DNA of 53,112 bases from a virus. Its lineage: Duplodnaviria; Caudoviricetes. The stretch is taken from positions 1 through 53,112 of IMG/VR virus record IMGVR_UViG_3300022602_003246, one strand, 5' to 3'. Shown here in pieces: positions 2-53,112 of the stretch. Each line of letters begins with the position of its first letter. Positions within the stretch are counted from its first letter, which is position 1. The notes beneath the pieces were generated by a model, which had not been told where the DNA came from, ran no database searches, and saw nothing but the letters and a program-made list of their open reading frames with translations. The translations under genes and the position numbers were made by a program.

Positions 2-364
2 TATCACGTTGCTATGGTGATTGGTGATAAGACTAATGATTATGTAAAGAGCGATTATTTCACGCTACCGTTAGATTGTATTGCAGTTAAGGGAAAGAAA
101 GAAGGCGTTAATATTCACACAGTATTAGAAATTCGAGGTAATGCATATCAATATGCTGCGGACAAAGTTCGTCATCTTAATATGATGGATGATTATCATT
201 CGCAAAAATTTAAGACTGCCGCCGCCGCGTGTAAAGCACTAATAGGTTCATTTGATGGTCAAATGGATGGATATTATGAAATGTGGATTGAACGTTGTGT
301 CGAGATGGCTGCAAATCCACCAGGCGAAGATTGGGACCAAATTTTTAGGACCAACACAAAATAA
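2..364 (+). CDS. C-terminal end of class III adenylate/guanylate cyclase (5'-truncated by window)
   Basis: LDCIAVKGKKEGVNIHTV matches the cyclase 'IxVKGK-x-P/V-x-Y' C-terminal motif, followed by a helical tail ending PPxxWDxIFRxxTK. Frame is open from the window start. Confidence 0.7.
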   Translation, partial: YHVAMVIGDKTNDYVKSDYFTLPLDCIAVKGKKEGVNIHTVLEIRGNAYQYAADKVRHLNMMDDYHSQKFKTAAAACKALIGSFDGQMDGYYEMWIERCVEMAANPPGEDWDQIFRTNTK

Positions 365-1434
365 TGGCAAATGATTTTTGTTTTTTATTGTCAAATGGAT
401 TGTTTATTAGTGACAAAGGGCATAGTAAAGAAAATATAAATTTTTCGCCTTGTTGCATTTATAAAGAGCAATCAACAAATATTGATAATAGTTGGCAAAA
501 TATTAATGCTTGGACACAGAATTGTGATAGATGTTTTATAAAAGAAAAAAGCAATAAACAAAGCAGACGCCAAGAAATTAACAAAGAATTTTCTTATGTA
601 AAAGATGCAGAACTTTCTTATCTTGAAATTGACCATAACAATGCTTGCAATGCAGCATGTGGAATGTGTAGTTCAATGAATAGTAGCAGTATTGCACAAA
701 TACTTCGTAAAGAAGGAAAAAACTTTGTTCCAGTTCCAACTGTAAAACAAAAAGAAGTATTTCAAGTCATTAATAACTTGGACTTAAGTAAAATAAAGGT
801 AATAAAATTTAGAGGTGGCGAACCTTTTTATTCTAATTTTCATCAAAAAGTTTTAGATAAAGTAGAATTTCCAAGTAACGCTACGTTAATGTATCAAACA
901 AATGGTTCAATTTATCCTAATGTTTCTTGGTGGGATAAAGCCAATAAATTTAAAGAAATACATATGTCTTTTAGCATAGACGGTGTTGGTGAAAAATATA
1001 ATTACATAAGAAGTAATTTAAATTTTGAAGCCATAAAAGAAAACATTATTAAAATTTTACAAAATAAACAAGTAAATTTTTCAGTAAGTATAGAATGCAC
1101 TTTAAATCCACTAAACGCATATTATTTTGACGATATTTTTAAGTTTACTCAAGAATTAAAAAAATATAACAAAAACATTACTTTAAATTGGCATCAATGT
1201 TGGGGCGAATGGGGTCTTGAAAATACACCACCAAATCTACGTGAACTTATTACAAAAAAGTATAAAAATATGAATTTATGTAAAGTAATTAATGATTTTG
1301 ATTTTGATGAAAGTAAATTTATTAGTTTTGTTTTATCGCTGCAACAACATGAGAAAAGATTTAATCTTGATACGATGAAAGCTTTCCCAGAAGTTTATCC
1401 ACTCATTATAGAATATTACAATAGTTTGACTTAA
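364..1434 (+). CDS. Radical SAM protein with N-terminal Cys-rich (twitch/SPASM-like) segment
   Basis: CNAACGMC (CxxxCxxC), GGEPF, QTNGS and SIDG motifs. Confidence 0.85.
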   Translation: MANDFCFLLSNGLFISDKGHSKENINFSPCCIYKEQSTNIDNSWQNINAWTQNCDRCFIKEKSNKQSRRQEINKEFSYVKDAELSYLEIDHNNACNAACGMCSSMNSSSIAQILRKEGKNFVPVPTVKQKEVFQVINNLDLSKIKVIKFRGGEPFYSNFHQKVLDKVEFPSNATLMYQTNGSIYPNVSWWDKANKFKEIHMSFSIDGVGEKYNYIRSNLNFEAIKENIIKILQNKQVNFSVSIECTLNPLNAYYFDDIFKFTQELKKYNKNITLNWHQCWGEWGLENTPPNLRELITKKYKNMNLCKVINDFDFDESKFISFVLSLQQHEKRFNLDTMKAFPEVYPLIIEYYNSLT

Positions 1435-8437: not shown

Positions 8438-8458
8438 GGGTTATAGATGGAGGCAATT

Positions 8459-8926
8459 ATGAACAAAGTTATCGTTTTTGACATTGATGGCACGATTGCC
8501 AACACTGAACATCGTAAGCATTGGGTTTCAAGCAAGCCAAAGAATTGGGCGGCTTGGAACGCTGGTATGGCTAATGACACGCCACATGCGGATATCAAAT
8601 TTATTATGGATATGTTGCGGTTTGCTAATGTAAACCATCCAGACCACGAAGATGAAATTGCTATTATTTTGTGCAGTGGTCGTGGCGAGGAAACTCGTGA
8701 AGTTACTCGTCGTTGGTTGAACGATAATGGCTTTACATATGAGCAACTGTATATGCGAAGCGAGGGCGACTATCGCAAGGATAGCATCGTTAAGGTAGAA
8801 TTGCTTGAACAAATCCGTAAGGATTGGGGACCACCGTTTTTATGGTTCGACGATAGAGAGCAAGTGGTGCAGGCGATCAGAGCAGAAGGCGTTCGTGTTC
8901 TACAAGTTGCTGACGGTAAATTTTGA
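8459..8926 (+). CDS. HAD-family polynucleotide 3'-phosphatase (PseT C-terminal-domain-like)
   Basis: FDIDGT, CSGR, LYMR...RKDSIVK, FDDREQVV and VLQVADG. Confidence 0.85.
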   Translation: MNKVIVFDIDGTIANTEHRKHWVSSKPKNWAAWNAGMANDTPHADIKFIMDMLRFANVNHPDHEDEIAIILCSGRGEETREVTRRWLNDNGFTYEQLYMRSEGDYRKDSIVKVELLEQIRKDWGPPFLWFDDREQVVQAIRAEGVRVLQVADGKF

Positions 8927-9535
8927 TTTACATTTATCGCCATGCCATCTAACAATATTTGATTTTATTGTTAGTATGCCACAATGTTCGCAATAAAATT
9001 TCGGCTGATTGTATGTTTTTCCTGTATGGGATTTAGATATTTTCAGCCGAACTTCATCTGTATGTGTTTTGCCATAAAATGGATTATTTTTTCCTGTTCT
9101 TTTTTCAGATAAATTTTTCTTAAACTTTTCGGTTCTTTTACAACCCATATTTCCTAATCTTGTTTTTTCTATACTTTCTTTTGTTCTTTTATGACCCATC
9201 AAAGTTTTTGATATCTTTTCTTTTGAATTTTGAGAAAAAATTCGACCACTTGTTCCATCACCGCCGTCAGTCATATTTCTTAAAATTCCAGTTCCTAAAT
9301 CAAGACGACCATACCAAGCAATCATACGACGCTCGATTGCTAACGCACCAATTTCTGTTAAATTGTGTTCAAGTATCATAATTTTATTTTTATTTTTTGG
9401 AACTTTTATGTTATGGTTTTTAGACCATGCTCTATCGGCTTTGCCTTTACCAATATAATATGGAGTGTTGTTTGATGCTCTTATATAAGCATATACATAA
9501 TATCCACTTGGTGGATTCGTTGGTGTAAATACCAT
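8900..9535 (-). CDS. Free-standing GIY-YIG-like homing endonuclease with NUMOD3 repeats
   Basis: YVYAY...PYYIGKG, E-rich helix, NMTDGGDG, NUMOD3-like GKTHTDEVRLKIS, C-terminal CEHC...HGDKC. Confidence 0.8.
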   Translation of the reverse strand: MVFTPTNPPSGYYVYAYIRASNNTPYYIGKGKADRAWSKNHNIKVPKNKNKIMILEHNLTEIGALAIERRMIAWYGRLDLGTGILRNMTDGGDGTSGRIFSQNSKEKISKTLMGHKRTKESIEKTRLGNMGCKRTEKFKKNLSEKRTGKNNPFYGKTHTDEVRLKISKSHTGKTYNQPKFYCEHCGILTIKSNIVRWHGDKCKSKFTVSNL

Positions 9536-9600
9536 TGCTGTTGTCCTTCACGACGATAGAGTAGGCAGGATTGCAGTCCGTGGCCTACACTATTATTTAT
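9536..9600 (-). ncRNA. Conserved structured leader, copy 1, with late promoter
   Basis: ATAAATAATAGT-GTAGGC-CAC-GGACTGCAATCC-T-GCCTAC-TCTAT-C-GTC-GTGAAG-GAC-AACAGCA-ATG; homologous to 32065-32130 and 53013-53076. Confidence 0.75.
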
Positions 9601-9630
9601 CACTGTGAATTCATTATATAATCTTTCTAC

Positions 9631-9658
9631 TTGACAACCCCATATTATATGCTATTAT
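9631..9658 (+). promoter_or_regulatory. sigma70-like promoter
   Basis: TTGACA-16 nt-TATTAT, TG extended -10. Confidence 0.6.
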
Positions 9659-9684
9659 GATGTATAAGTTAATGAAGATTTCTA

Positions 9685-9804
9685 ATGTTAGGATTTGTTG
9701 CACTTTGGTTTGTCATTTGGATTATGTGGTGGCCAGAGGATGTTGGCGAAACTATTGCCAAAATTCGCAAAGGCTATGATAAGACAATGGGGGATATGTC
9801 ATGA
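9685..9804 (+). CDS. 39-aa membrane peptide (not in ORF track)
   Basis: MLGFVALWFVIWIMWWPEDVG...; ATGA overlap with next ORF. Confidence 0.5.
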   Translation: MLGFVALWFVIWIMWWPEDVGETIAKIRKGYDKTMGDMS

Positions 9805-9968
9805 ATTTCTGGACAAGTATATTAGCAGTATTTTTTGTAGATGCAGTATGTGCGGCTATGAAATATAATCAAGGGCAAACATTTGTAATTTTAATTGCAA
9901 CTACTGTTTTGTATTTTTTAACACAGTTTGCTTTTGGAGTTATTAAAGAATGGAAGAATTTGGGATGA
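9801..9968 (+). CDS. 55-aa two-TM membrane protein (not in ORF track)
   Basis: MNFWTSILAVFFVDAVCAAM...; ATGA overlaps on both sides. Confidence 0.55.
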   Translation: MNFWTSILAVFFVDAVCAAMKYNQGQTFVILIATTVLYFLTQFAFGVIKEWKNLG

Positions 9969-10426
9969 CCACGCTTTATATGTTAGTTGGTGTGCCTGGT
10001 TCGGGCAAGTCAACTTGGATTAAGAACCAAGGTTTTAAAGATGTAATTATTGCATCAAGCGATGATTATATCGACCGTGTTGCGGCTGAAAGTGGCAAGA
10101 CTTATAACGAAATCTTTAGCCGTGCTATTGGTTATGCACAAAAGTTTTGTGATGCCCAAGTGCAGACTGCTATCAACCTTGACAAAACTCTTGTTTGGGA
10201 TCAGACTAACACAACTGCTAAGGGTCGCTGCGTCAAGTTACGTCGTATTCCTAACGATTGGCGCAAAATTTGTGTATTTTTTGAAACCCCTGAACCAGAG
10301 GAATTACAACGCCGTCTTGATAGTCGTGTAGGCAAGAGCATTCCAAAGGATGTTATGAAGTCTATGATTGATAACTTGGAAGTTCCTGATTTGAAAGAAG
10401 GTTGGGACGAGATAATTTGGGCTTGA
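9965..10426 (+). CDS. P-loop polynucleotide kinase-like protein (AAA_33)
   Basis: LVGVPGSGKSTW Walker A, SSDD and WDQTN. Confidence 0.85.
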   Translation: MTTLYMLVGVPGSGKSTWIKNQGFKDVIIASSDDYIDRVAAESGKTYNEIFSRAIGYAQKFCDAQVQTAINLDKTLVWDQTNTTAKGRCVKLRRIPNDWRKICVFFETPEPEELQRRLDSRVGKSIPKDVMKSMIDNLEVPDLKEGWDEIIWA

Positions 10427-13632: not shown

Positions 13633-14259
13633 ATGTTATGTGATTATGAGTGTGGCGAAGAAGCAAAATATAAATTAAAAAATGGAAAAAATTGCTGTCA
13701 ACAACATTATAGTTCATGCAGAAGTGTTAAAGAAAAAAATTCACTCGGATTAAAAAGTGCATATAAAAAAGGCACACGAAAATCAGCAAAGAACATCTAT
13801 AATGAATTGCCACAAGAAACAAAAGATAAAATGGCATGGGCAAGAGGAAAAACTTTTACCGAAAATGTAGATGTTTTTACAGATTATAGTATGCATGGTA
13901 ATATGTTTATTAAAAAAAGAATAATACAAGAAAATCTTATTGAATATAAATGCCATAGGTGCGACGTGACCGAATGGTTTGGTGAAAAAATCACCCTTGA
14001 TTTAGACCACATTAATGGAAATAATCGTGACAATAGATTAGAAAATTTAAGATTTTTATGCCCGAATTGTCACAGTTTAACATCAACATATAAAGGCAGA
14101 GGAAAAAATATTGGAACCGTAAAAGTATCTGACGAAGAATTAATTGCCGCATATAAATCCGAAGGAAATATTCGTAAAACATTATTGAAAGTAGGACTAT
14201 CCGCAAAGGGTGGAAATTATGCAAGAGTAAAACAATTAATTGCAAAGTTTAACATTTAA
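13633..14259 (+). CDS. HNH homing endonuclease
   Basis: CHRC...LDLDHINGNNRDNRLENLRFLCPNCH. Confidence 0.9.
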   Translation: MLCDYECGEEAKYKLKNGKNCCQQHYSSCRSVKEKNSLGLKSAYKKGTRKSAKNIYNELPQETKDKMAWARGKTFTENVDVFTDYSMHGNMFIKKRIIQENLIEYKCHRCDVTEWFGEKITLDLDHINGNNRDNRLENLRFLCPNCHSLTSTYKGRGKNIGTVKVSDEELIAAYKSEGNIRKTLLKVGLSAKGGNYARVKQLIAKFNI

Positions 14260-16110: not shown

Positions 16111-16922
16111 TGCCCATACTAATAGCAGGCGGCGATAGTTTTACTTGGGGTAGTGAATTAGGTGATGATAAGTTTGATCACATAGAACATACCCCAAGTA
16201 AAAAAACATGGTCAGCACTTTTAGCAAAACATTTTGATTATGAATACAAATGTGTTGCTAAACCAGGCGGCGCAAACAATACAATTACTCGTCGCGTTGT
16301 GCAAGCAATTAATCAATATGCAGACCAAGAAATTTATGTTGCCGTTATGTGGACATTTACACATCGCAGTGAAATAAGATTGCGCAACATGCATCCATAT
16401 AACACAATTGTGCATGATCGGGTAACTGCCGCGCGTTATGATATTGATGATTATTGGATTAACTTCAATGCATGGCACGGGTTACCATTTGATGAAAAGA
16501 TGGAATTTTTTCCACGAGGCATGGATGAATCTTCTCGCAAATTTTTCCGCGAACAACATGATAAATTGTTTGAAATTGGTGTTGTGCAAGCAAGTGATGC
16601 TTACTACAAAGTAACAGGCGATTACAGTTTTCATAACTTTAATTCATTAAAAGAAATGATGTTTTTAGAAATGTATTGTAAGCAACGAAATATACCATAC
16701 TTTTTTTGTAGTGCAAGCGATGAATTGTTTAAACCGCAACCACCCGATTTATTAGAGAGTGGATTATATAATTTAGACTGGAATCATTGGTATAAGGACA
16801 ATGGTTTCAATATTTGGAGTGAATCATTGCCAAAAAGTGGTAATCATCCAGGTCCATTGGCGCACAGCGATTGGTTTAATTTGATATTGCCTAAAGTATC
16901 AGAGTGTTATAAAACTAAATGA
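16110..16922 (+). CDS. SGNH/GDSL-like hydrolase family protein
   Basis: GDSFTWG near the N-terminus, GAxN, C-terminal HPGPLAH. Confidence 0.6.
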   Translation: MPILIAGGDSFTWGSELGDDKFDHIEHTPSKKTWSALLAKHFDYEYKCVAKPGGANNTITRRVVQAINQYADQEIYVAVMWTFTHRSEIRLRNMHPYNTIVHDRVTAARYDIDDYWINFNAWHGLPFDEKMEFFPRGMDESSRKFFREQHDKLFEIGVVQASDAYYKVTGDYSFHNFNSLKEMMFLEMYCKQRNIPYFFCSASDELFKPQPPDLLESGLYNLDWNHWYKDNGFNIWSESLPKSGNHPGPLAHSDWFNLILPKVSECYKTK

Positions 16923-18169
16923 CAGAATTTCCAATTAAAACACAAACTGCTTGTCAACTTAAGTGGTCATGGAGCACAATTTATTTAAGTCGTGGAACTA
17001 CTTCAAGTTGTCATCGCGTCAATCAAATACAATTCACACATGAAAATTTTAATGACTTTCATAATTTACCTAAAAAGATTGAAGACCGTCAACTAATGAT
17101 TGATGGCAAAAGACCAGTTGGTGGATGCGAATATTGTTATAAGATTGAAGACGCTGGTGGATTTAGTGACAGACAATATCAAATGCACGACCAAACTATA
17201 TTACCTAAAGAATTAAATGAAAATAATTTTGCTACACAAGTTACACCCACAATATTAGAAATATATTTTAGTAATATATGCAATTTAAGCTGCTTATATT
17301 GCGGTCCACATTATAGTTCAGTCTGGCAAAATGAATATAAAAAATTTGGTACAATTAAAAAAGATATTTTAGAATTAAATCGAGATGCTGAATATCGTTT
17401 GAATGAAAATTATGATGTTATGGTCGCTAAACTGTGGGAATGGATGCGTGAAAATAGTAAACATTTAAAAAGATTCCATATATTAGGCGGTGAACCATTT
17501 TTCCAAAGTGAATTCATAGATTGCTTAGACCATTTTGAAGAATATCCAAATCCAGATTGCGAATTTGTTATCATTACTAATCTTATGGTTGACGATAAAC
17601 GCATGGATTATTACATTGAACGGTTTAAAAAACTTGTAGGTAAACGCAAATTAAAAGGTTTACAAATTACTTGCAGTTTAGATTGTTGGGGACCACAAGC
17701 GCAATATATTCGCACTGGTTTAGACCTTGCTCAATGGCAACGAAACTTTGAAAAACTATTGCAAATAAAATGGATACGGCTACAAATAAATCATGCAGTA
17801 AATGTGTTAAGCATAAAGTATATGCCAGAATTATTACAAAAAATTGCAGAATGGAATACGTTTAGAAAAATTTATACCCAATATATGACTGTAATGAAAC
17901 CTGAATATATGAATCCTGATATTTTTGGTGGAGAATTATTTGCGCAAGATTTACAAAAAATTATAGAAATGATGCCGCAGAACACAGAATTTGATAATAA
18001 CATTCGTGAATATTTTATAGGCATTGGTAAACAAATCGGTGCAGCAGAACCAAATAGTTACCAAATTAATAATTTGAAAATATTCCTAACTGAAATTGAC
18101 CGCAGAAGAAACACAGATTACCGTAAATTATTTCCTTGGTTGGCGGAAATATTTGAAAATAATGCTTGA
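16919..18169 (+). CDS. Radical SAM protein with twitch-like N-terminus
   Basis: CNLSCLYC, LGGEPF, ITN and SLDCWG. Confidence 0.87.
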   Translation: MTEFPIKTQTACQLKWSWSTIYLSRGTTSSCHRVNQIQFTHENFNDFHNLPKKIEDRQLMIDGKRPVGGCEYCYKIEDAGGFSDRQYQMHDQTILPKELNENNFATQVTPTILEIYFSNICNLSCLYCGPHYSSVWQNEYKKFGTIKKDILELNRDAEYRLNENYDVMVAKLWEWMRENSKHLKRFHILGGEPFFQSEFIDCLDHFEEYPNPDCEFVIITNLMVDDKRMDYYIERFKKLVGKRKLKGLQITCSLDCWGPQAQYIRTGLDLAQWQRNFEKLLQIKWIRLQINHAVNVLSIKYMPELLQKIAEWNTFRKIYTQYMTVMKPEYMNPDIFGGELFAQDLQKIIEMMPQNTEFDNNIREYFIGIGKQIGAAEPNSYQINNLKIFLTEIDRRRNTDYRKLFPWLAEIFENNA

Positions 18170-18331: not shown

Positions 18332-19063
18332 ATGACAGATTTATGTGATTATGGTTGTGGAACAGAAGCAAAATATAAACTAAAAAATGGAAAGAATTGT
18401 TGCAGTAAATCTACAAGTTCTTGTGATGGAATGAAAGAAATAAATCGTTCCAAAATAAAAAATTTAAGAAAAGATTTAGGCAATAATTATTGGAAAAATG
18501 GACACCCCAAAGGTTCATCGAAGGGAACAAGTATTAAAGGAAAAACATATGATGAAATATTTGGCGAACAAGGTGCTTTAATTCAAAAAGAAAAGTTGCG
18601 AAATGCAAATTTGGGTAAATCATTTTGGAATACTTTAAGTGAAGAAAAACAACAAAAGTTTAGAGATAAACATCGTGAAATAATTTTGAAAAGATATGAA
18701 GACGGTTGGATGCCAAAAGCTGGCAGATGTAAAAAAATTAGGTATTTTAGTCCAATAGCAGGTGAAGTATTATTAGATGGAACTTGGGAATTAAAAGCAG
18801 CACAATATATGGATGCTAAAAAATGGAATTGGAAAAGAAATACTGAAAGATTTGCATACATTAACCTATCTGGTAAAATAAGCCATTATACACCAGATTT
18901 TTATGTAGAAGAACTTGGCGGATATCTTGAAGTAAAAGGTTATGAAACAGAATTAGATCGTTGCAAGTGGAAACAATTTAAAAATAACTTGACAATATGG
19001 AAAAAAGATACTATATATAATATAACGGAGTCTGGGCAGGACGGTAATGCAGCAGCCTGCTAA
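18332..19063 (+). CDS. Free-standing PD-(D/E)XK (TnsA-like) endonuclease
   Basis: YTPDFYV...YLEVKG; Cys-rich N-terminus shared with the HNH at 13633; TATAAATA upstream. Confidence 0.75.
   Translation: MTDLCDYGCGTEAKYKLKNGKNCCSKSTSSCDGMKEINRSKIKNLRKDLGNNYWKNGHPKGSSKGTSIKGKTYDEIFGEQGALIQKEKLRNANLGKSFWNTLSEEKQQKFRDKHREIILKRYEDGWMPKAGRCKKIRYFSPIAGEVLLDGTWELKAAQYMDAKKWNWKRNTERFAYINLSGKISHYTPDFYVEELGGYLEVKGYETELDRCKWKQFKNNLTIWKKDTIYNITESGQDGNAAAC
18989..19017 (+). promoter_or_regulatory. sigma70-like promoter for tRNA-Ser, inside the endonuclease ORF
   Basis: TTGACA-17 nt-TATATA, 9 nt upstream of the tRNA. Confidence 0.5.
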
Positions 19064-20381: not shown

Positions 20382-21563
20382 ATGTTTTACGATTTTCCCC
20401 GTATCACCCACCTTGACCAGGTTCGTCCTGCTATTGAAGGTCGTGATGAATTTATCATTGCAGAGCGTGATTGGGGCTATGTAGTCAATTACATGGTCAG
20501 CATGTCTGATACCTTTCCGCCTGTTGAGTCAGAGATGGATGCAATTCGTCGTGAGTGTCGTGGTATGCTGTTCCACAAGGACGGCTCTATCATGGCTCGC
20601 CGCTTGCACAAGTTCTTCAACATTGGTGAGCGTGATGAAACGCAGTTTTCTGCGATTGACTTTTCACAGCCGCATGTTATCTTGGAGAAGTTAGACGGCA
20701 GCATGGTAACTGGCGTATTCACCGATGGTGGATTGCGACTTGGCACCAAAATGGGGATTACGGAAGTCTCTATGCAAGCAGAAGAGTTTGTAGCAACACG
20801 CCCACAGTATGAACAGTTCATTCGTTGGGCAGATCAATCATGTGGTTATACTCTTATATTTGAATGGTGTTCTCGTAAGCAACAGATTGTTATTGATTAC
20901 CCAGAAGACCGTCTTGTTTTAATCGCCGCTCGCCACAAGGAAAACGGTGCTTATGCAAGCCTGCAATGGTTGCAAGAGTATGGTGATATGTTTGAAGTAG
21001 AGGTTGTAAAGACCTATGCTGGTACCGCCAAGTCTATGGTTCATCTTATGGATGAAACTCGTGATGCCGAAGGCATTGAGGGTTATATCGTTCGCTTTGA
21101 TGATGGTCACATGCTAAAAATAAAGGCGGCTGATTATCTTCGTAAGCATAAGACAAAGGATGCTATCTCGTTAGAGAAGAACATTATCTCTTTGTTAGTA
21201 AATGAACAAATGGACGATGTAAAGGCATTTATGCTTCCAGACGACCGCAAGCGGGTGGAAGATTACGAAACCGATTTTTGGATCGGTGTAAATCAAGTAG
21301 TTCAGTCATATGACCGCTACTTTGATACTGTAATCGCTCACGGACTTGACCGCAAGCGTTTTGCTTTGGAATGGCTTCCTACAATTAAAGGTCAGGATGC
21401 TTTTGCTGGCAACATTGTTTTCGGCAAATTTGATCATCGTGATACGAGAACTATGGTATTAGATATCATCAAGCGTAGCACTGGAACCCAAACTAAAATT
21501 GACGAAGTTCGTCATCTTTGGGGTTCACATCGTTGGACTTATCACTTTGAGGCTGATGCTTAA
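20382..21563 (+). CDS. T4 Rnl1-type RNA ligase
   Basis: RECRG, KFFN, EKLDGS (adenylated Lys), FEW, EGY and LKIK. Confidence 0.9.
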   Translation: MFYDFPRITHLDQVRPAIEGRDEFIIAERDWGYVVNYMVSMSDTFPPVESEMDAIRRECRGMLFHKDGSIMARRLHKFFNIGERDETQFSAIDFSQPHVILEKLDGSMVTGVFTDGGLRLGTKMGITEVSMQAEEFVATRPQYEQFIRWADQSCGYTLIFEWCSRKQQIVIDYPEDRLVLIAARHKENGAYASLQWLQEYGDMFEVEVVKTYAGTAKSMVHLMDETRDAEGIEGYIVRFDDGHMLKIKAADYLRKHKTKDAISLEKNIISLLVNEQMDDVKAFMLPDDRKRVEDYETDFWIGVNQVVQSYDRYFDTVIAHGLDRKRFALEWLPTIKGQDAFAGNIVFGKFDHRDTRTMVLDIIKRSTGTQTKIDEVRHLWGSHRWTYHFEADA

Positions 21564-26963: not shown

Positions 26964-27797
26964 ATGAAGAAAATTCTATTAATTATTGCCGCACTTATGG
27001 TTCCATCATTCGCTTATGCATGGAATCAGCGTCCAAATCAACCAGATGCTGTATGCACCGCTTTCATGCCATTTGGTAAAGTTACTGATACACAAAAGCA
27101 CGATACCACACCACTCTGCCGTCAAGGTTATTATGTTCAGCATGATAATGCTGCTAAAGAACCACTATGGGCAGCTTGGGAAATTACTCCACAACATGTA
27201 AACGGTTGCGTTCCACGCAGTAATGCTTTTACTGCTGATAATGCACTGTCTGCTGACAAGCGTTCAACACCACAAGATTATGTTGGTAGCGGATATGATC
27301 AAGGTCATATTGCTAATGATGCACATCAATCTTGGGACCAACAAGTTGAATATGAATCATTCCTAATGAGTAACATGTCACCACAGTTGCCAGGTCTAAA
27401 TCGTGGTATCTGGAAGTTGTTAGAAACTTCAACTGGTGCATGGACATTCTCACGCAATCACACTTTACTCATTTATGCTGGTAACATTTATACCGTTGGT
27501 AAAGATAAAACAATCGGTGCCGACAAAGTAACTGTTCCACATCAATTATGGAAGATTGTTATTGATACACAAACCAAAGAAGTTCTTGCGTTCTTGTTCC
27601 CACAAGCAGAAAATCAAGGCAATGACTTAACTAAGGTTCAGGTTAGCGTTGCTGATGTTGAAGCCGCAAGTGGTTTAGTATTTCCACTACCACCTGGTGC
27701 TGACAAAAAAGCAAAGCCTGCTCTTTGGCCAGTTGACTTTAAAGCAGTTGCTGCTGCAAAGAAGACTCTTTGCAAGGGCATGATTGATAACGACTAA
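26964..27797 (+). CDS. Secreted DNA/RNA non-specific endonuclease (NucA/Serratia family)
   Basis: Signal peptide; YDQGHIA, SNMSPQ...LNRGIW..LE and VPHQLWK. Confidence 0.9.
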   Translation: MKKILLIIAALMVPSFAYAWNQRPNQPDAVCTAFMPFGKVTDTQKHDTTPLCRQGYYVQHDNAAKEPLWAAWEITPQHVNGCVPRSNAFTADNALSADKRSTPQDYVGSGYDQGHIANDAHQSWDQQVEYESFLMSNMSPQLPGLNRGIWKLLETSTGAWTFSRNHTLLIYAGNIYTVGKDKTIGADKVTVPHQLWKIVIDTQTKEVLAFLFPQAENQGNDLTKVQVSVADVEAASGLVFPLPPGADKKAKPALWPVDFKAVAAAKKTLCKGMIDND

Positions 27798-31276: not shown

Positions 31277-31492
31277 ATGGCAAAAGAAGAACTAATTACA
31301 TTTGAAGGTAAAGTTGTGGAAGTTTTACCAAATGGTGTATTCAGGGTAGAAATAAACGAGCACATTGTTCTTGCTTACACAAGTGGCAATATTCGTAAAA
31401 ATAAGATTAAGATTATTCAAGATGATCGTGTAAGCGTTGAATTGAGTCCTTATGATTTAACTCGTGGTCGTATAACTTATCGTTTTAAATAA
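31277..31492 (+). CDS. infA: Translation initiation factor IF-1
   Basis: [19 protein letters not shown]...[18 protein letters not shown]. Confidence 0.95.
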
Positions 31493-31503: not shown

Positions 31504-32064
31504 TTAATTTTTTAATTTTTGAGAATACATTTTTTTCAAAGATTCTGATATTTTCATTTTAATTTCATCCGTCATTTTATATGTTGATTTTCCTTTTCTT
31601 ACAGCAGACATCCTCTGTTTTGTTTCTTGCGATAATTTTTTTCCAAGTTTAGAATTTTTTATTTTTTCTATGGTTTCTTGTGTTCTTGGTCCTCTCTTTT
31701 TTCCTTTAAAGTGTGACGGTCTTCCTTTGAGAGTGTTTGAAGTTTTATTTTTTGTTTCTTGACTTCTCTTATTTCCATTTGAACCTTCTCCTCCATCCGT
31801 GCGATTTAATAATATTCCAGTATTATTATCTTTACGACCATACCAAGCAATCATTCGGCGTTCTATTGCCAATGCACCGATTTCAGTTAAATTGTGTTCA
31901 AGTATAATAATTTTAGATTGATCTTTTGGTTTTGTTATATTATAATGCTTCGTATAGGCTCTTAGTTGATGCCCCTTACCAATATAATATGGAGTTAAAT
32001 CACTTGCTCTTATATAAGCATATACATAATATCCACTTGGTGGATTTTGTTTGGTAAATACCAT
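31504..32064 (-). CDS. Free-standing GIY-YIG-like homing endonuclease with NUMOD3 repeats
   Basis: True start [21 protein letters not shown]; N-terminal half closely similar to 8900-9535. Confidence 0.8.
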
Positions 32065-32130
32065 TGCTGTTGCCCTCCCAGGCGATAGAGTAGATAGGAC
32101 TGCGAATCCGTGATCTACACTATTATTTAT
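32065..32130 (-). ncRNA. Conserved structured leader, copy 2, with late promoter
   Basis: ATAAATAATAGT-GTAGAT-CAC-GGATTCGCAGTCC-T-ATCTAC-TCTAT-C-GCC-TGGGAG-GGC-AACAGCA-ATG. Confidence 0.75.
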
Positions 32131-32156: not shown

Positions 32157-32504
32157 ATGCAAGCAGTAACACTTACAGAAGCAGCAAGAACACATATTCG
32201 TCGCACTCTTATTGATATTGATAAACCATATCTTGTATTTGGATTACAAGGTGGCGGTTGTGCTGGTTTTGAATATTTTTGGCAACCAGCAGATGATGAA
32301 CTTTATTCTGAAAAAGGTTCACCAGATATTGATGAAATGATTAGCGTGGGTGAAGGTAAAAGTCTTATTGTAGATGGAACTTCACTTGTTTACCTAATTG
32401 GCAGTGAAATAGATTATAAAAATGATTTTATTAGCAGCCAACTTGTGGTCAACAACCCAATAGCAAAGTCTAGTTGCGGTTGCGGAACATCAATTAGTGT
32501 GTAA
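32157..32504 (+). CDS. A-type Fe-S cluster carrier (IscA/HesB family)
   Basis: GGGCAGFEY...[13 protein letters not shown]. Confidence 0.9.
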
Positions 32505-47783: not shown

Positions 47784-50015
47784 ATGACAAATTTTAACAG
47801 CAACGGCGACCTTGAAAAAGTAGTTAAGATAGCAAAGCAGTTTGCTATTGATAACAATCACCAATATTATACAGTGGAACATCTGCTTGTCAGTATGCTC
47901 CATGAACGTGGATTTAGTCGTCTTCTTACACAAATAGGCATTGATGTTGAAAGCCTTGTGCAAGATTTGGAAAATTATATTTTTGATAATATTCCACAAG
48001 GCAAAGATTCAGTAGAACCTAAAAAGACACAAACACTTGAGCGTGTCTTTAACCGTGCTTTTACACAAGTTATACTACTTGGTCGTCAAACTATCAATAT
48101 TACTGATCTTTATCTTAGTATCAGTAAAGAAACACAAAGTCATGCTGCTTACTTCCTAAAGAAATATGGTGTTGAACCTGAAAAGGTAATGGAAGTATTT
48201 GCAAATGAGCGCAAGAAACACAGTGGCTTTAATACTGGCAGTGCGCTTGATGAATATTGTACTAATCTTAATGAATTAGTCGTTGATGGCAAGATTGATC
48301 CTGTTATTGGTCGTGCAACTGAAATTGCAGACATGACACAAATTCTTGCCCGTAAGAATAAATGCAATGTTATTCTTGTTGGTGATCCAGGCGTAGGTAA
48401 AACTGCAATTGCCGAAGGTCTTGCATATAACATTGTACATAATGAAGTTCCAAAGTTCTTGCGTGGTCACGATGTTTATAGCTTAAACATTGGTTCGCTG
48501 TTAGCAGGCACCAAGTATCGTGGTGATTTTGAAGAACGATTGCAAGAGATTATGAATGCAGCCACAGAGCGTGGTAATGTTATTCTGTTTATTGACGAAG
48601 CACATCAAATGAATGGTGCTGGCGCTGGTAGCCAAAGCAATGTTGATTTTGGCAACATGATTAAACCAGCATTGGCACGTGGCGATTTTAAAGTTATTGC
48701 TTCTACTACGTGGGAAGAGTACACCAAGCATTTTGAAAAAGACCGTGCGCTTATGCGCCGCTTTAACAAAGTAAATGTTGGCGAACCAAGTATTGAAGAT
48801 TGTAAAACAATTATGCTTGGTATCAAAACAAATTATGAAGCATTTCATAATGTTAAAATTACAGATGCTGCTGTTATTGAAGCAGTTATGTTGAGTCATC
48901 GTTATCAAGCAGATAAGAAGCTGCCAGATAAAGCAATTGATCTAATTGACAGTGCTGCTGCACTTCGCCGCACACAATCACGTGGTTCACGCACTATTGA
49001 CGTAAATCAAATCCGCCGTGAGTTGAGTCGTATTACTGGTATTCCAGAGTCACAGCTTGGTGCAGAGAATACACAGAAACTTATGCCAAATCTTGATAAA
49101 GACATTAAGGCAAAAGTTTATAACCAAGATGCCGCTGTTGATGCTGTTCTTGACCGTGTATGGGTAAGTCAAGCTGGCTTAAAGGCTGATAATAAACCCG
49201 TTGGTTCCTTCTTGTTCCTTGGACCAACTGGCACAGGTAAGACAGAACTTGCAAAGCAATTAAGTGAAAAACTTAGTATGAAGTTGTTGCGCTTTGATAT
49301 GAGTGAATATCAAGAACGGCATAGTATTTCACGGTTGATTGGTGCGCCTCCTGGCTATGTTGGATATGAAGATGCTAACCTTGCTGGCGGATTGCTTATT
49401 AGTGAAGTTGCTAAAAACCCACATTGTATCATTCTGTTTGACGAGATTGAAAAAGCACATCCAGATGTTGCACAAGTGTTGTTGCAAGTTATGGATGAAG
49501 GTTTCATCACTGGCACCAATGGTAAACGTGCTGACTGTCGCCAATCACTACTGATTATGACCAGTAATCTTGGTGCCGCTGACAGTGAACGTCTTGTTAT
49601 TGGTTTTGGTAATCAAGATCGTAGTGATGCGGTTGATGCTGCTGTTAAAGAGCATTTCCGTCCAGAGTTCCGCAATCGTGTAGATGCGATTGTTACATTC
49701 AACAAACTGGATAGCAAAACTATCCGTAAGATTGCTGAAAAGTTCATTGCCGAACTTCAAGCACAAATGTCAGGTAAAAACATCACACTTGATGTTACTG
49801 ACGCTGCTTATGATTGGCTTGTCAAGAAGGGTTATAGTCCGCTTCTTGGTGCAAGACCAATGAGCCGCACAATTCATGAACATATTAAGACTCCGCTTGC
49901 AAAGAAAATACTGTTTGACAAATCACAGAACAGTGTTACAATTAAGGTAGACTTGCTTGATGACAAGTTAGAATTGGTGGCAGAAAATGACAGTAACAGA
50001 ACAAACGCTGATTGA
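47784..50015 (+). CDS. clpA: ATP-dependent Clp protease ATP-binding subunit ClpA
   Basis: Clp N domain, two AAA+ modules (GDPGVGKT, GPTGTGKT), IGF loop, no middle domain. Confidence 0.9.
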   Translation: MTNFNSNGDLEKVVKIAKQFAIDNNHQYYTVEHLLVSMLHERGFSRLLTQIGIDVESLVQDLENYIFDNIPQGKDSVEPKKTQTLERVFNRAFTQVILLGRQTINITDLYLSISKETQSHAAYFLKKYGVEPEKVMEVFANERKKHSGFNTGSALDEYCTNLNELVVDGKIDPVIGRATEIADMTQILARKNKCNVILVGDPGVGKTAIAEGLAYNIVHNEVPKFLRGHDVYSLNIGSLLAGTKYRGDFEERLQEIMNAATERGNVILFIDEAHQMNGAGAGSQSNVDFGNMIKPALARGDFKVIASTTWEEYTKHFEKDRALMRRFNKVNVGEPSIEDCKTIMLGIKTNYEAFHNVKITDAAVIEAVMLSHRYQADKKLPDKAIDLIDSAAALRRTQSRGSRTIDVNQIRRELSRITGIPESQLGAENTQKLMPNLDKDIKAKVYNQDAAVDAVLDRVWVSQAGLKADNKPVGSFLFLGPTGTGKTELAKQLSEKLSMKLLRFDMSEYQERHSISRLIGAPPGYVGYEDANLAGGLLISEVAKNPHCIILFDEIEKAHPDVAQVLLQVMDEGFITGTNGKRADCRQSLLIMTSNLGAADSERLVIGFGNQDRSDAVDAAVKEHFRPEFRNRVDAIVTFNKLDSKTIRKIAEKFIAELQAQMSGKNITLDVTDAAYDWLVKKGYSPLLGARPMSRTIHEHIKTPLAKKILFDKSQNSVTIKVDLLDDKLELVAENDSNRTNAD

Positions 50016-53012: not shown

Positions 53013-53076
53013 ATAAATAATAGTGTAGGTCACGGGTTGCAGCCCTACCTACTCTATGTTTATAGGGAACACAGCA
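53013..53076 (+). ncRNA. Conserved structured leader, copy 3, with late promoter
   Basis: ATAAATAATAGT-GTAGGT-CAC-GGGTTGCAGCCC-T-ACCTAC-TCTAT-GTT-TATAGGG-AAC-ACAGCA-ATG. Confidence 0.75.
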
Positions 53077-53112
53077 ATGGTATTTACCAGCACTAATCCG
53101 CCAAGCGGATAT
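53077..53112 (+). CDS. 5' end of third GIY-YIG-like endonuclease (truncated by window)
   Basis: MVFTSTNPPSGY, matching the starts of the other two copies. Confidence 0.75.
   Translation, partial: MVFTSTNPPSGY

Follow-up and report, generated by a model that had tools for sequence, protein, structure and literature searches.

A covarying leader element of homing endonuclease genes in uncultured phages, with structure that appears to be selected on the opposite strand

Three genes for GIY-YIG-like nucleases in the window (the whole 53,112-nt stretch of phage DNA analysed here) begin behind copies of one short leader element, at the positions that an earlier note had reported: 9536-9600 and 32065-32130 on the minus strand and 53013-53076 on the plus strand (copies A, B and C; Table 1). 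Shuffles predict 0.23 occurrences of the 14-base core of the element, ATAGTGTAGNNCACGG, and the window has exactly three, the one further site that resembles it having two mismatches and being unrelated. A covariance model run over the window gives only the three copies as sense-oriented matches, at 85-95 bits. The third nuclease ORF is cut by the end of the window; its counterpart in a relative, G001, is complete and encodes 213 aa. Pfam searches of the GIY-YIG-like ORFs detect NUMOD3 only, and not PF01541. Residues Y13, Y15, Y27, G29, R35, E68 and N87 are invariant in 36 relatives, and a profile of the ORFs matches PDB 9u75_A, a 'GIY-YIG domain-containing protein', with E = 8.8e-5; as judged from their sequence, the ORFs belong to the GIY-YIG nuclease superfamily.

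A T4-type late-promoter box, [ACGT]TAAATA, lies upstream of each nuclease ORF, 64-65 nt before the ATG in the three copies. Cyanophage late promoters have been described as NATAAATA (PMC2984593). TAAATA is under-represented in the window (40 occurrences observed, 90.7 +/- 9.6 expected) and many of its sites lie 17-30 nt upstream of ORFs, large structural genes included; it behaves as a functional signal. The cassette reaches into the coding sequence, codons 2-4 of the ORF containing the reverse complement of the late-promoter box as a second promoter-like box. The string that forms this second box in copy A, GTAAATACC, also precedes ORFs at 26964 and 41374. A scan for sigma-70-like sites called none at the element. 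Three large relatives contain matches to Gp23 (PF07068) and to gp55-like proteins, the latter strong in one relative and weak in two, and the phages that carry the cassette are T4-like.

Table 1. Positions of the features of the three copies in the window
Feature	Position	Strand	Remark
Copy A late-promoter-like box ATAAATA	9594..9600	-	Complement is the U-tract of the predicted antisense RNA
Copy A hairpin B	9561..9588		Outer and inner helices of the earlier note
Copy A hairpin A, antisense to the gene	9538..9559	+	
Copy A second promoter-like box GTAAATA	9525..9531	+	Within codons 2-4 of the nuclease ORF
Copy A predicted cis-antisense RNA	9537..9600	+	Inferred ends
Copy A GIY-YIG-like + NUMOD3 homing endonuclease ORF	8900..9535	-	211 aa
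Copy B late-promoter-like box ATAAATA	32124..32130	-	
Copy B hairpin B	32090..32118		
Copy B hairpin A, antisense strand	32067..32088	+	
Copy B antisense promoter-like box GTAAATA	32054..32060	+	Codons 2-4
Copy B predicted cis-antisense RNA	32066..32130	+	Inferred ends; MFE -18.2 kcal/mol, z = -2.3
Copy B GIY-YIG-like + NUMOD3 homing endonuclease ORF	31504..32064	-	186 aa from the ATG at 32064
Copy C late-promoter-like box ATAAATA	53013..53019	+	
Copy C hairpin B	53025..53052		
Copy C hairpin A, antisense strand	53054..53074	-	
Copy C antisense promoter-like box GTAAATA	53081..53087	-	Codons 2-4
Copy C predicted cis-antisense RNA	53013..53075	-	Inferred ends; MFE -17.1 kcal/mol, z = -2.0
Copy C third GIY-YIG-like ORF	53077..53112	+	Start only, cut by window end

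The element is located inside inserted DNA, in agreement with the earlier proposal that it travels with the nuclease cassette. The cassette of copy B is inserted between IF-1-like and Fe-S-assembly-like genes, which directly abut each other in G001, a relative that is nuclease-free at this site (the insertion boundary was set by eye against G001). At site A the intergenic DNA is divergent from that of G001. Copies A and B run antisense between plus-strand genes and copy C is co-oriented. Across 136 loci, with rough ORF picking, the upstream neighbour lies on the opposite strand at 76, on the same strand at 47 and is absent at 13, and the corresponding counts for the downstream neighbour are 84, 47 and 5. 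Among 117 upstream neighbours, the best 25 of 65 matched Pfam families are T4 core genes; the split-intein 'fractured genes' of Dassa et al. were considered for these loci and set aside, no intein being found among those 25 families.

The element belongs to a family present in at least 200 IMG/VR stretches, of which 130 distinct versions were analysed. A 15-base pattern from the 5' part retrieved 65 IMG/VR stretches; four of them, from a contig nearly identical to the window, were left out, and 49 of the 61 given to the covariance model were positive. A 3' pattern that constrains no stem retrieved at least 120 IMG/VR stretches, and all 80 loci that were fetched were model-positive. When the 3' pattern was used on prokaryote genomes, 3 of 80 loci were model-positive, all on 2-3 kb contigs in MAGs. 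The model has matches in five IMG/VR genomes, copy number within one genome reaches nine, and the model finds no element in five cultured T4-like phages (T4, S-PM2, the Synechococcus phages B3 and RN05-S, and the Pseudoalteromonas phage XG4). The earlier note recognised no named family in the element, and Rfam 15 bears this out with no match there: at the gathering threshold the whole window yields four tRNAs only, a permissive search of 9450-9700 gives one chance match of 13.9 bits, and permissive searches of three other element-bearing loci return nothing at the element. A blastn search of GenBank phages with two leaders gave only two 28-nt chance matches, in a Gordonia phage. The bulged hairpin was also considered as a kink-turn, a CsrA site or a riboswitch; these readings were rejected because the required G·A pairs are absent from the non-bulged strand, GGA is not conserved and there is no Rfam match.

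The earlier note had tied the leader to GIY-YIG-like genes, an association that proved too narrow. The leader also precedes HNH, canonical GIY-YIG, Vsr/PD-(D/E)XK-like and NUMOD3-only ORFs; at locus L088, for example, it stands before a Vsr/MTES_1575-like ORF, and an identical leader is found before different ORFs in copy A and at locus L150. Because one element precedes several nuclease families, the suggestion of a nuclease-specific operator or of an RNA cofactor of the nuclease is disfavoured. The leader is not a constant companion of this nuclease family either: at 24 of 78 loci found by protein alone it is absent, and there the ORF follows another structured leader, a plain promoter or no promoter at all; the nuclease family therefore does not need the element.

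The GTAGNN/NNCTAC and GGN/NCC helices and the small hairpin around the Shine-Dalgarno (SD) sequence were first read from the three copies, and larger samples confirm them with strong covariation. In 88 distinct sequences picked without reference to the stems, the three helices are paired in 97.5%, 97.2% and 95.5% of cases; double-change cells number 348 against 89.6 +/- 10 in shuffles, and the covariation score is 0.652 against 0.183 when shuffled, with slid controls at or below 0.095. When 130 distinct elements are aligned with MAFFT as their antisense strands, with 17 modelled pairs, 97.5% of cells are paired (75.7% in shuffles), 497 cells are double-change (133 +/- 15 in shuffles) and the covariation score is 0.650 (0.217 shuffled; slid controls at most 0.091), although the significance from shuffle controls and Wilcoxon tests is overstated because the sequences are related. 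The non-coding leader is conserved at least as well as the DNA coding for the catalytic domain (median identity 0.70 vs 0.65, with the leader higher in 519 of 600 pairs). The element is thus conserved, covarying and structured.

Two details of the original folding needed revision. The ATAG/CTAT extension of the outer helix holds in the three window copies and fails across the family, where it is 69.6% paired and its changes are one-sided. The CAC bulge, TCTAT and ACAGCA, which had been listed as invariant, are not all unpaired. The middle base of the bulge pairs with a single 3' pyrimidine (CGC/C 72, CAC/T 21, CAC/C 34, CGC/T 0), and TCTAT pairs with ACAGC in a further helix, which forms on the opposite strand only. 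A pairing of the conserved CUCU with the SD, picked out by eye, was discarded as impossible in copy A and in many AAGGA-type SDs.

The earlier note placed the structure inside the late sense transcript, and here the wobble pattern points the other way. Read on the antisense strand, the 17 pairs comprise 1858 Watson-Crick, 275 G·U and 11 A·C cells, with 66 others or gaps. All but one of the 130 sequences contain one particular G·U pair. At the R-Y pair, 75 sequences have G-C, 22 A-U, 33 G·U and none A·C, and the 33 G·U cases are spread over 12 different stem contexts. Across the 130 elements, the segment from +1 to the start codon has a mean MFE of -17.5 kcal/mol antisense and -12.8 kcal/mol sense, the antisense fold being the more stable in 123; a comparison of the P3 segment without its outer arms, which gave no strand difference in folding, is superseded by this whole-segment comparison. 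Exactly two hairpins form on the antisense strand in 125 of 130 elements, and RNAalifold predicts two hairpins from the antisense alignment and one from its reverse complement. Because G·U so outnumbers A·C on the antisense strand, and because that strand folds better in nearly all elements, the comparison indicates that selection for the covarying pairs acts on the strand opposite to that of the nuclease gene.

The antisense strand of copy A folds into two hairpins and a U tail (MFE -22 kcal/mol, z = -3.1); the sense UTR folds have z = -1.9, -1.8 and -1.0 in copies A, B and C. Hairpin A of copy A has an 8-bp helix with two G·U pairs and an anti-SD in its loop, and its inner 3 bp are what had been described as a third hairpin. 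Hairpin B of copy A consists of helices of 6 bp and 3-5 bp, separated by the R-Y pair with a bulged base on either side. On the antisense strand 98.7% of hairpin B cells are paired, with compensatory changes in 11 of 11 pairs. Hairpin B has a mean energy of -10.5 kcal/mol and is followed on the antisense strand by ACUUUUAUUUAU-like tails, whose U-richness is not independent evidence because the U-tract is indistinguishable from the complement of the sense promoter. It was not called in a scan for intrinsic terminators that models uninterrupted stems only.

The two promoter-like boxes share a 5-nt spacing to a G. In two samples not selected on the box, 42 of 48 elements have exactly 5 nt between the antisense box and GCTG (in copy A, GTAAATA is 5 nt before the conserved G at 9537), and the spacing from the forward box to the invariant G of hairpin B is likewise 5 nt. 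The antisense box reads ATAAGTA in 9 of the 48 elements of these unbiased samples, about a fifth, a change that never occurs in the forward box. As a T4-type late promoter, ATAAGTA may be weaker than ATAAATA, whereas nothing would be lost by the change if the box only had to pair, as G·U, with the U-tract within an antisense transcript of greater length. The TAYTTAY motif after the ATG is conserved as a nucleotide sequence across different reading frames, with proteins starting MVFT, MxIY or MYLR, and is retained in unrelated nuclease families, and even where the start codon has moved.

We propose, with confidence a little short of even, that the element specifies a cis-antisense RNA of 65-70 nt that covers the whole 5' UTR in the manner of IS10 RNA-OUT/RNA-IN; its transcription, its termination and its repressive action are what we infer. 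Among the sequencing runs listed for the sequence, none was of RNA. In an uncultured group of T4-like phages, the element would be a mobile expression cassette of ~85 bp that makes up the 5' end of free-standing homing endonuclease genes. The gene strand would supply a NATAAATA-like late-promoter box, a 5' UTR of ~57 nt, a Shine-Dalgarno sequence and the start codon, and the opposite strand would be transcribed from the second late-promoter-like box in codons 2-4, provided that both boxes fire. The predicted RNA, ~65-70 nt long, would begin at the conserved G (GCUG...) and form hairpin A, a helix of 8-9 bp in which G·U pairs are conserved and whose loop contains the anti-SD CUCC(U), then, one nucleotide further on, hairpin B, with a 6-bp helix, the R-Y pair between two bulged G and a 4-5-bp helix. 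Its 3' end would fall in the U-tract, which is complementary to the promoter box of the nuclease gene itself, hairpin B and the U-tract together resembling an intrinsic terminator. As predicted, this RNA has two covarying hairpins and is complementary to the ribosome-binding region and, indeed, to the entire 5' UTR of the late nuclease mRNA. By pairing with that UTR, probably loop to loop from the SD, it would keep translation of a potentially harmful nuclease low, following the same logic as IS10 RNA-OUT/RNA-IN and type I antitoxins. Because both promoters would be of the late class, with no temporal separation of the RNA and its target, repression could be quantitative only. A wider generalization is possible but on balance doubtful: a universal 'governor' in which a cis-antisense RNA from a hidden late promoter masks the 5' UTR, and in which the RNAs might cross-talk and produce copy-number-dependent damping of every homing endonuclease in the genome.

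The antisense-strand structure could instead work within longer opposite-strand transcripts, as a terminator or insulator or as the 5' UTR or stabiliser of a neighbouring gene, with the intragenic box driving the neighbour as a replacement promoter or pairing with the U-tract as a closing helix. The cassettes do lie opposite to their neighbours more often than co-oriented with them (76 vs 47 upstream and 84 vs 47 downstream), copies A and B being antisense between plus-strand genes; a U-rich tract follows hairpin B, seen on the sense side as 6.9 A of 12; and the T/C variation of TAYTTAY is that expected of a pairing partner of the U-tract, with G·U on the antisense strand. We nevertheless consider this explanation unlikely. 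Conserved bulges, an invariant G·U, an anti-SD loop and a constant distance of 5 nt from box to G are not required of a terminator or a stabiliser, co-orientation of the cassette, as in copy C, leaves the element unaltered, and a strong terminator at site B would cut off the Fe-S-assembly-like gene.

Strand asymmetry also bears on two other explanations. If the element acted in the 5' UTR of the late sense transcript, as a stabilising hairpin at +1 with an SD-presenting hairpin and/or as a shared site for a trans-acting protein, its pairing would include 275 A·C mismatches among 2210 cells and no more than 11 G·U, hairpin A would lack its outer helix, and the fold would be the weaker one in 123 of 130 elements; SD and AUG accessibility also barely changes, leaving no evident I-TevI-type switch. 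We regard such a role as decidedly improbable, even though the predicted late +1 is the invariant G at the helix base, most pairs are Watson-Crick and the main hairpin forms in the sense RNA too (mean -9.3 kcal/mol). It has precedents in the T4-type homing endonuclease hairpins known upstream of ribosome-binding sites, of which seg43(25) is non-sequestering (PMC2988022), and in the interpretation of similar hairpins by Dassa et al. as 5'-UTR regulators (PMC2677866). The element might also act as DNA, either as a single-stranded or cruciform hairpin or as shared homology that promotes the swapping of nuclease ORFs, as in the PeSL cassettes, whose promoter/terminator motifs drive modular shuffling in T4-like phages (PMC4122927; PMC2839356). 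The joining of one leader and its first codons to at least four unrelated nuclease families, the identity of leaders in front of different ORFs (copy A and L150) and the inverted repeats of the promoter box at the ends of the element are all in keeping with this idea. Recognition of double-stranded DNA, or homology, would however conserve sequence and not complementarity, and a cruciform would treat the strands alike, yet G·U and A·C stand at 275 and 11. G·T wobbles in single-stranded DNA of one strand could produce such a pattern, although there is no obvious process that would select them, and we hold a DNA-level role to be very unlikely.

Homing endonuclease genes need enough expression to spread and little enough to spare the carrier phage, and the known T4 solutions are gene-specific hairpins and autorepression. 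The element described here would provide portable control that does not depend on the nuclease family and is carried along with the ORF; if the antisense reading is true, this control is exerted by a small RNA instead of a switch in the 5' UTR. It would constitute a well-supported new structured-RNA family, with 130 distinct members, strong covariation and no Rfam counterpart, and is a clear case in which wobble-pair asymmetry moves the structure of a 'leader' to the opposite strand. It also offers a compact bidirectional promoter/terminator design from T4-like phages that is testable in T4 and Escherichia coli. Should the 'governor' reading be true, this would be the first RNA-OUT-like system described for homing endonucleases.

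Late-promoter/RBS-sequestering hairpins have been described for I-TevI, I-TevII, I-TevIII, segB and Aeh1 mobE (Edgell, Gibb and Belfort 2010; PMC2988022). The present element shares with these T4-type hairpins a T4-type late-promoter box directly upstream of a homing endonuclease gene, an RNA structure between promoter and start codon and, presumably, the restraint of a selfish nuclease. Unlike them, it does not sequester the SD in a promoter-containing helix, and it forms a conserved family across nuclease families with pairing apparently selected on the opposite strand. The contrast with I-TevI-type hairpins drawn in the earlier note is fair, predicted SD accessibility being nearly equal in read-through and late transcripts: unpaired probabilities over 130 elements are 0.47 vs 0.51 for the SD and 0.38 vs 0.43 for the AUG. 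A closing helix between the promoter box and TATTTAY leaves positions +4 to +13 more paired in the read-through transcript (unpaired probability 0.48 vs 0.64); an I-TevI-type switch was rejected as the main mechanism, because this helix hardly alters SD or AUG accessibility.

Dassa et al. (2009) described conserved 5'-UTR hairpins of metagenomic free-standing homing endonuclease genes at 'fractured gene' loci, placed upstream of GIY-YIG and Vsr-like nuclease ORFs in marine and freshwater metagenomic T4-like loci (PMC2677866). They report TATAAATA in 10 of 16 cases, two conserved motifs that are mutually complementary in the stem, and a hairpin kept at one locus after loss of the nuclease gene (PMC2677866). 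Compared by its text description, that set may correspond to the present element, which likewise precedes GIY-YIG and, at L088, Vsr/MTES_1575-like ORFs; in the text compared, the hairpins are treated as sense-strand translational elements, without covariation or strand analysis (PMC2677866). In the T4-like cyanophage S-PM2, too, a free-standing homing endonuclease gene faces an antisense RNA, CfrI (Millard et al. 2010, as cited in PMC2984593), but that RNA is ~225 nt long and spans both the nuclease gene and psbA (PMC2984593), and S-PM2 is among the phages in which our model finds nothing. PeSL modules are, as described, similarly small conserved stem-loops with a promoter that recur in a genome and flank swappable ORFs; they differ in having early promoters and in flanking ORFs of hyperplastic regions (PMC4122927; PMC2839356). 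The present element, unlike PeSL, has late-type boxes on both strands, a link to nuclease genes and strand-specific covariation. The PeSL combination of a terminator and an early sigma-70-type promoter was not found at the element; interchangeable nuclease ORFs were.

In the literature searched, nothing was found that describes these leaders as forming a covarying RNA family or as having an antisense RNA. In IS10, convergent overlapping promoters stand at the 5' end of the selfish element's gene, and RNA-OUT is a stable, structured antisense RNA of ~70 nt that is complementary to the 5' end of the mRNA, ribosome-binding site included. The element resembles this arrangement in its overlapping, convergent promoter-like boxes and in a structured antisense RNA of ~70 nt, which is here a prediction. 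It differs in that the gene encodes a homing endonuclease of a lytic phage, in that both boxes look like T4-type late promoters, and in that the putative terminator U-tract is the complement of the promoter of the target.

Each of the three leaders in the window has the layout described in the earlier note, with an ATAAATA box followed by a bulged hairpin, a small SD-containing hairpin and the ATG of an MVFT ORF. The window, a 53-kb piece of an IMG/VR virus record with a completeness of ~16%, contains their 14-base core at exactly three places, against 0.23 expected. NUMOD3 was found in the ORFs, and their PHROG matches are annotated 'homing endonuclease'. Pfam's own GIY-YIG model does not match them; the Tyr, Tyr, Arg, Glu and Asn characteristic of GIY-YIG enzymes are invariant in a profile of 36 relatives, which matches a PDB 'GIY-YIG domain-containing protein' (E = 8.8e-5). 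Codons 7–12 of the MVFT ORFs (NPPSGY) contain a perfect 6-bp palindrome, ATCCAC CAA GTGGAT, flagged on both strands by a terminator scan; relatives have ATCCGC CAA GCGGAT, in which two synonymous changes keep the pairing. The window comes from a jumbo T4-like phage whose accessory set is unusual.

Coordinates of the leaders and of associated features
Feature	Location	Position	Strand	Remark
Leader copy A	window	9536-9600	-	
Leader copy B	window	32065-32130	-	
Leader copy C	window	53013-53076	+	
Coding palindrome	window	9502-9516; 32031-32045	-	also L096, L107 and others
PNKP-type phosphatase domain (PF25109)	window	8447-8926		flanks nuclease A
P-loop kinase-like (AAA_33)	window	9950-10426		flanks nuclease A
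IF-1-like (PF01176)	window	31277-31492		with next row, 265.6-267 kb of the nuclease-free relative (G001)
Fe-S cluster assembly, IscA-like (PF01521)	window	32157-32504		
M..CDY.CG ORFs	window	13633-14259; 18332-19063	+	paralogous
tRNA genes	window	13046; 18210; 19027; 19514		adjoin M..CDY.CG ORFs
Clp/Lon-like ATP-dependent protease (phrog_4871)	window	47784-50015		accessory
T4 RnlA-like RNA ligase	window	20382-21563		accessory
Two radical-SAM proteins	window	364-1434; 16919-18169		accessory
Tandem cassettes	L072; L078	127-223 (first); 1398-1498 (second)		~1.2 kb apart
Leaders of shortened ORFs	L133; L140	4429-4523; 1070-1231		39 and 54 codons

The leader belongs to a large family without a name in Rfam, where no family matched at gathering or permissive thresholds, and a covariance-model search finds many further copies in IMG/VR. 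Searching there with a 15-base pattern taken from the element's 5′ half identified 65 stretches, of which 61 were given to the model (the four omitted lie on a contig almost the same as the window); the model, built from 30 sequences, found the whole element in 49, and the remaining 12 are chance matches. The 3′-half pattern constrains no stem, thus giving a stem-independent sample, and occurs in at least 120 IMG/VR stretches; all 80 loci retrieved from the matches listed were model-positive, as against 3 of 80 among the matches listed in a control search of 596 Gb of prokaryote genomes, all three on 2–3 kb contigs in MAGs. Blastn of the leaders against GenBank phages returned nothing relevant, and the model has no match in any of five cultured T4-like phages (T4, S-PM2, Synechococcus phages B3 and RN05-S, and Pseudoalteromonas phage XG4). 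Three large relatives, a complete 338-kb genome, a 259-kb record and a 197-kb genome, carry one, nine and two copies, respectively. All three encode a T4-type major capsid protein and have gp55-like matches, one of them strong and the other two weak, and cassette neighbours are T4 core genes (for example UvsY, DNA polymerase, clamp loader, UvsW, RegA and thymidylate synthase).

The three helices of the earlier note covary. In a stem-independent sample of 88 distinct sequences, in an alignment fitted to the covariance model, the 6-bp helix is paired in 97.5%, the inner helix in 97.2% and the SD hairpin in 95.5%, and double-change cells number 348, compared with 89.6 ± 10 after shuffling. The proposed ATAG/CTAT extension holds in the window copies but not in the family (69.6% paired in the same sample). 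Because that alignment was fitted to the model, the count was repeated in antisense orientation on 130 distinct elements aligned with plain MAFFT, with a structure taken from RNAalifold on the same sequences, which favours the count somewhat: 97.5% of cells pair (75.7% in shuffles), double-change cells number 497 (133 ± 15), and the covariation score is 0.650, compared with 0.217 shuffled and at most 0.091 in slid controls.

The main new result is that pairing is selected on the strand antisense to the nuclease gene. Read on the sense strand, the hairpin lacks G·U pairs and has recurrent A·C 'mismatches'. The supposed CAC bulge is in fact paired through its middle base to a lone 3′ pyrimidine (CGC/C 72, CAC/T 21, CAC/C 34, CGC/T 0), and the 'invariant' TCTAT and ACAGC prove to be the two sides of a helix possible only on the opposite strand, where G·U pairs close it. 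Across 17 antisense pairs in the 130 elements there are 1,858 Watson–Crick, 275 G·U, 11 A·C and 66 other or gapped cases; one G·U is found in 129 of 130 sequences, and the 33 G·U cases at the R–Y pair are spread over 12 different stem contexts. Between the predicted +1 and the start codon, the antisense strand folds with a mean MFE of −17.5 kcal/mol and the sense strand with one of −12.8 kcal/mol; the antisense fold is the better in 123/130, and 125/130 antisense sequences form exactly two hairpins. Predicted folds of antisense RNAs A, B and C have −22, −18.2 and −17.1 kcal/mol (z = −3.1, −2.3 and −2.0), with z = −1.9, −1.8 and −1.0 for the sense UTRs. P-values are inflated because the sequences are related, but an asymmetry of this direction and size is hard to account for in any other way.

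The element is also longer than previously described, reaching past the ATG into the ORF. Here TAYTTAY, which is the promoter box in reverse complement, is kept across three reading frames (MVFT, MxIY and MYLR), across unrelated nuclease families and in two loci (L160 and L164) whose start codon moved upstream; in samples not chosen on this motif, 42 of 48 elements have it at a distance of exactly 5 nt from the conserved CAGC. In this genome TAAATA seems to be a genuine signal: it is under-represented in the window (40 copies, 90.7 ± 9.6 expected), and many copies are placed 17–30 nt upstream of an ORF, with large structural genes among those ORFs. The GTAAATACC form, which the nuclease ORFs contain on their opposite strand, lies upstream of two ordinary ORFs as well. 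In order, the antisense strand reads: a box ([AGT]TAAATA or ATAAGTA); a 5-nt spacer; G and hairpin A (C–G, U–A, G·U and five or six more pairs), with a loop carrying CUCC(U), an anti-SD; a single A; hairpin B, with a 6-bp helix, an R–Y pair between two bulged G and a 4–5-bp helix; and A, two to four pyrimidines and UAUUUAU, which complements the promoter box of the nuclease gene. The alignments show both this geometry and selection on the structure.

ORFs downstream of the element belong to several families: the GIY-YIG-like family of the window, canonical GIY-YIG (PF01541), several kinds of HNH, a 532-aa Vsr/MTES_1575-like protein (phrog_3339, homing endonuclease), a NUMOD3-only protein and a Seg-like group without Pfam matches. 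Because of this variety of partners, the earlier suggestions of an operator for one nuclease or an RNA cofactor are unlikely. Nor does the element always precede the GIY-YIG-like family: among 78 loci found via the protein alone 54 have it, and the 24 others lack a promoter, have a plain one before a short leader, or carry a different leader with a long helix and two promoter boxes. At four loci (L045, L055, L058 and L066) this other leader, ~110 nt upstream of an ORF of the same family, contains a pair of TAAATA boxes; the arms of its long helix lie on either side of the second box and an inner G+C-rich hairpin, so that it more closely resembles the classical promoter-in-hairpin arrangement. 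The M..CDY.CG ORFs of the window have a plain ATAAATA box and short leader, and one matches HNH_3 weakly, at 23.1 bits and below the cut-off; should these ORFs be nucleases, the structured cassette is not used by every nuclease gene of this genome.

That the element travels with the nuclease is borne out by the 338-kb relative, which lacks nucleases at the loci of copies A and B: the cassette is part of the inserted DNA. At site B of this relative the IF-1-like gene directly abuts the Fe-S-assembly-like gene; in the window the promoter box is at most ~15 nt from the start of the insert, and the insertion has at its flank a short duplicate of the target end, the last part of the IF-1-like gene (GGTTTAAATAA-like). 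Nuclease A lies between separate genes for the phosphatase-domain and kinase-like proteins, which are also separate in the nuclease-free relative; T4 PseT has these two activities in a single protein. In the tandem cassettes the first precedes an HNH ORF and the second a GIY-YIG-like ORF, and the two shortened ORFs with intact leaders are decaying nuclease genes that still have the cassette. About 62% of cassettes (136 loci) are opposite to both neighbours rather than co-oriented, a crude figure with the longest nearby ORF taken as neighbour; the T4 free-standing nucleases differ, being almost all co-oriented according to a review (PMC2988022).

We tentatively propose, at a little under an even chance, that the cassette encodes a cis-antisense RNA of ~65–70 nt covering the whole nuclease 5′ UTR. 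Two convergent late-type promoters ~70 bp apart would give two RNAs: the nuclease mRNA, with its 5′ end at the base of hairpin B, and an antisense RNA of ~65–70 nt, complementary to the entire 5′ UTR and ending at hairpin B and a U-tract. Because the anti-SD loop is opposite the SD, itself in the loop of the small sense hairpin, pairing could start loop to loop, and the duplex would block ribosome binding or trigger cleavage, keeping nuclease synthesis low. Transcription from either box, termination and repression are what we infer.

It is rather unlikely that the antisense structure instead serves longer opposite-strand transcripts, as a terminator, insulator or neighbour's 5′ UTR. Cassettes are more often opposite their neighbours (76 versus 47 upstream and 84 versus 47 downstream at 136 loci, with rough ORF picking), and the ATAAGTA variant fits pairing better than promoter function, but this reading is at odds with the conserved bulges in hairpin B, the anti-SD loop, the fixed spacing from box to G and the unchanged element in co-oriented copy C. 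Action in the sense leader, as first suggested, is less probable again: the main hairpin would form in the mRNA too, since most pairs are Watson–Crick, and would start at the predicted +1, a stabilising configuration, yet the wobble pattern is wrong for the sense strand and no I-TevI-type switch is evident. A PeSL-like DNA-level recombination module, which would suit the swapping of ORFs behind a common leader, leaves the strand-specific complementarity unexplained and is very improbable.

The nearest logic to the proposed antisense control is that of IS10 RNA-OUT/RNA-IN. Cyanophage S-PM2 has an antisense RNA, CfrI, opposite a homing endonuclease gene (PMC2984593); it and the predicted cassette RNA are different molecules. 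In Dassa et al. 2009 (PMC2677866), hairpins are reported for 15/16 free-standing nuclease genes (GIY-YIG and Vsr-like) from metagenomes, in the 5′ UTR, with TATAAATA in ten and two mutually complementary conserved motifs, and are interpreted as translational hairpins; compared by text description, they may well be the present element. Edgell, Gibb and Belfort 2010 (PMC2988022) review T4 hairpins, including one without RBS sequestering. Our literature search found no paper describing covariation, an intragenic mirror box or an antisense reading of these leaders. The proposed system would be of a known kind, combining regulated homing endonuclease cassettes with cis-antisense control of selfish genes; its structural family is well supported and its mechanism putative.
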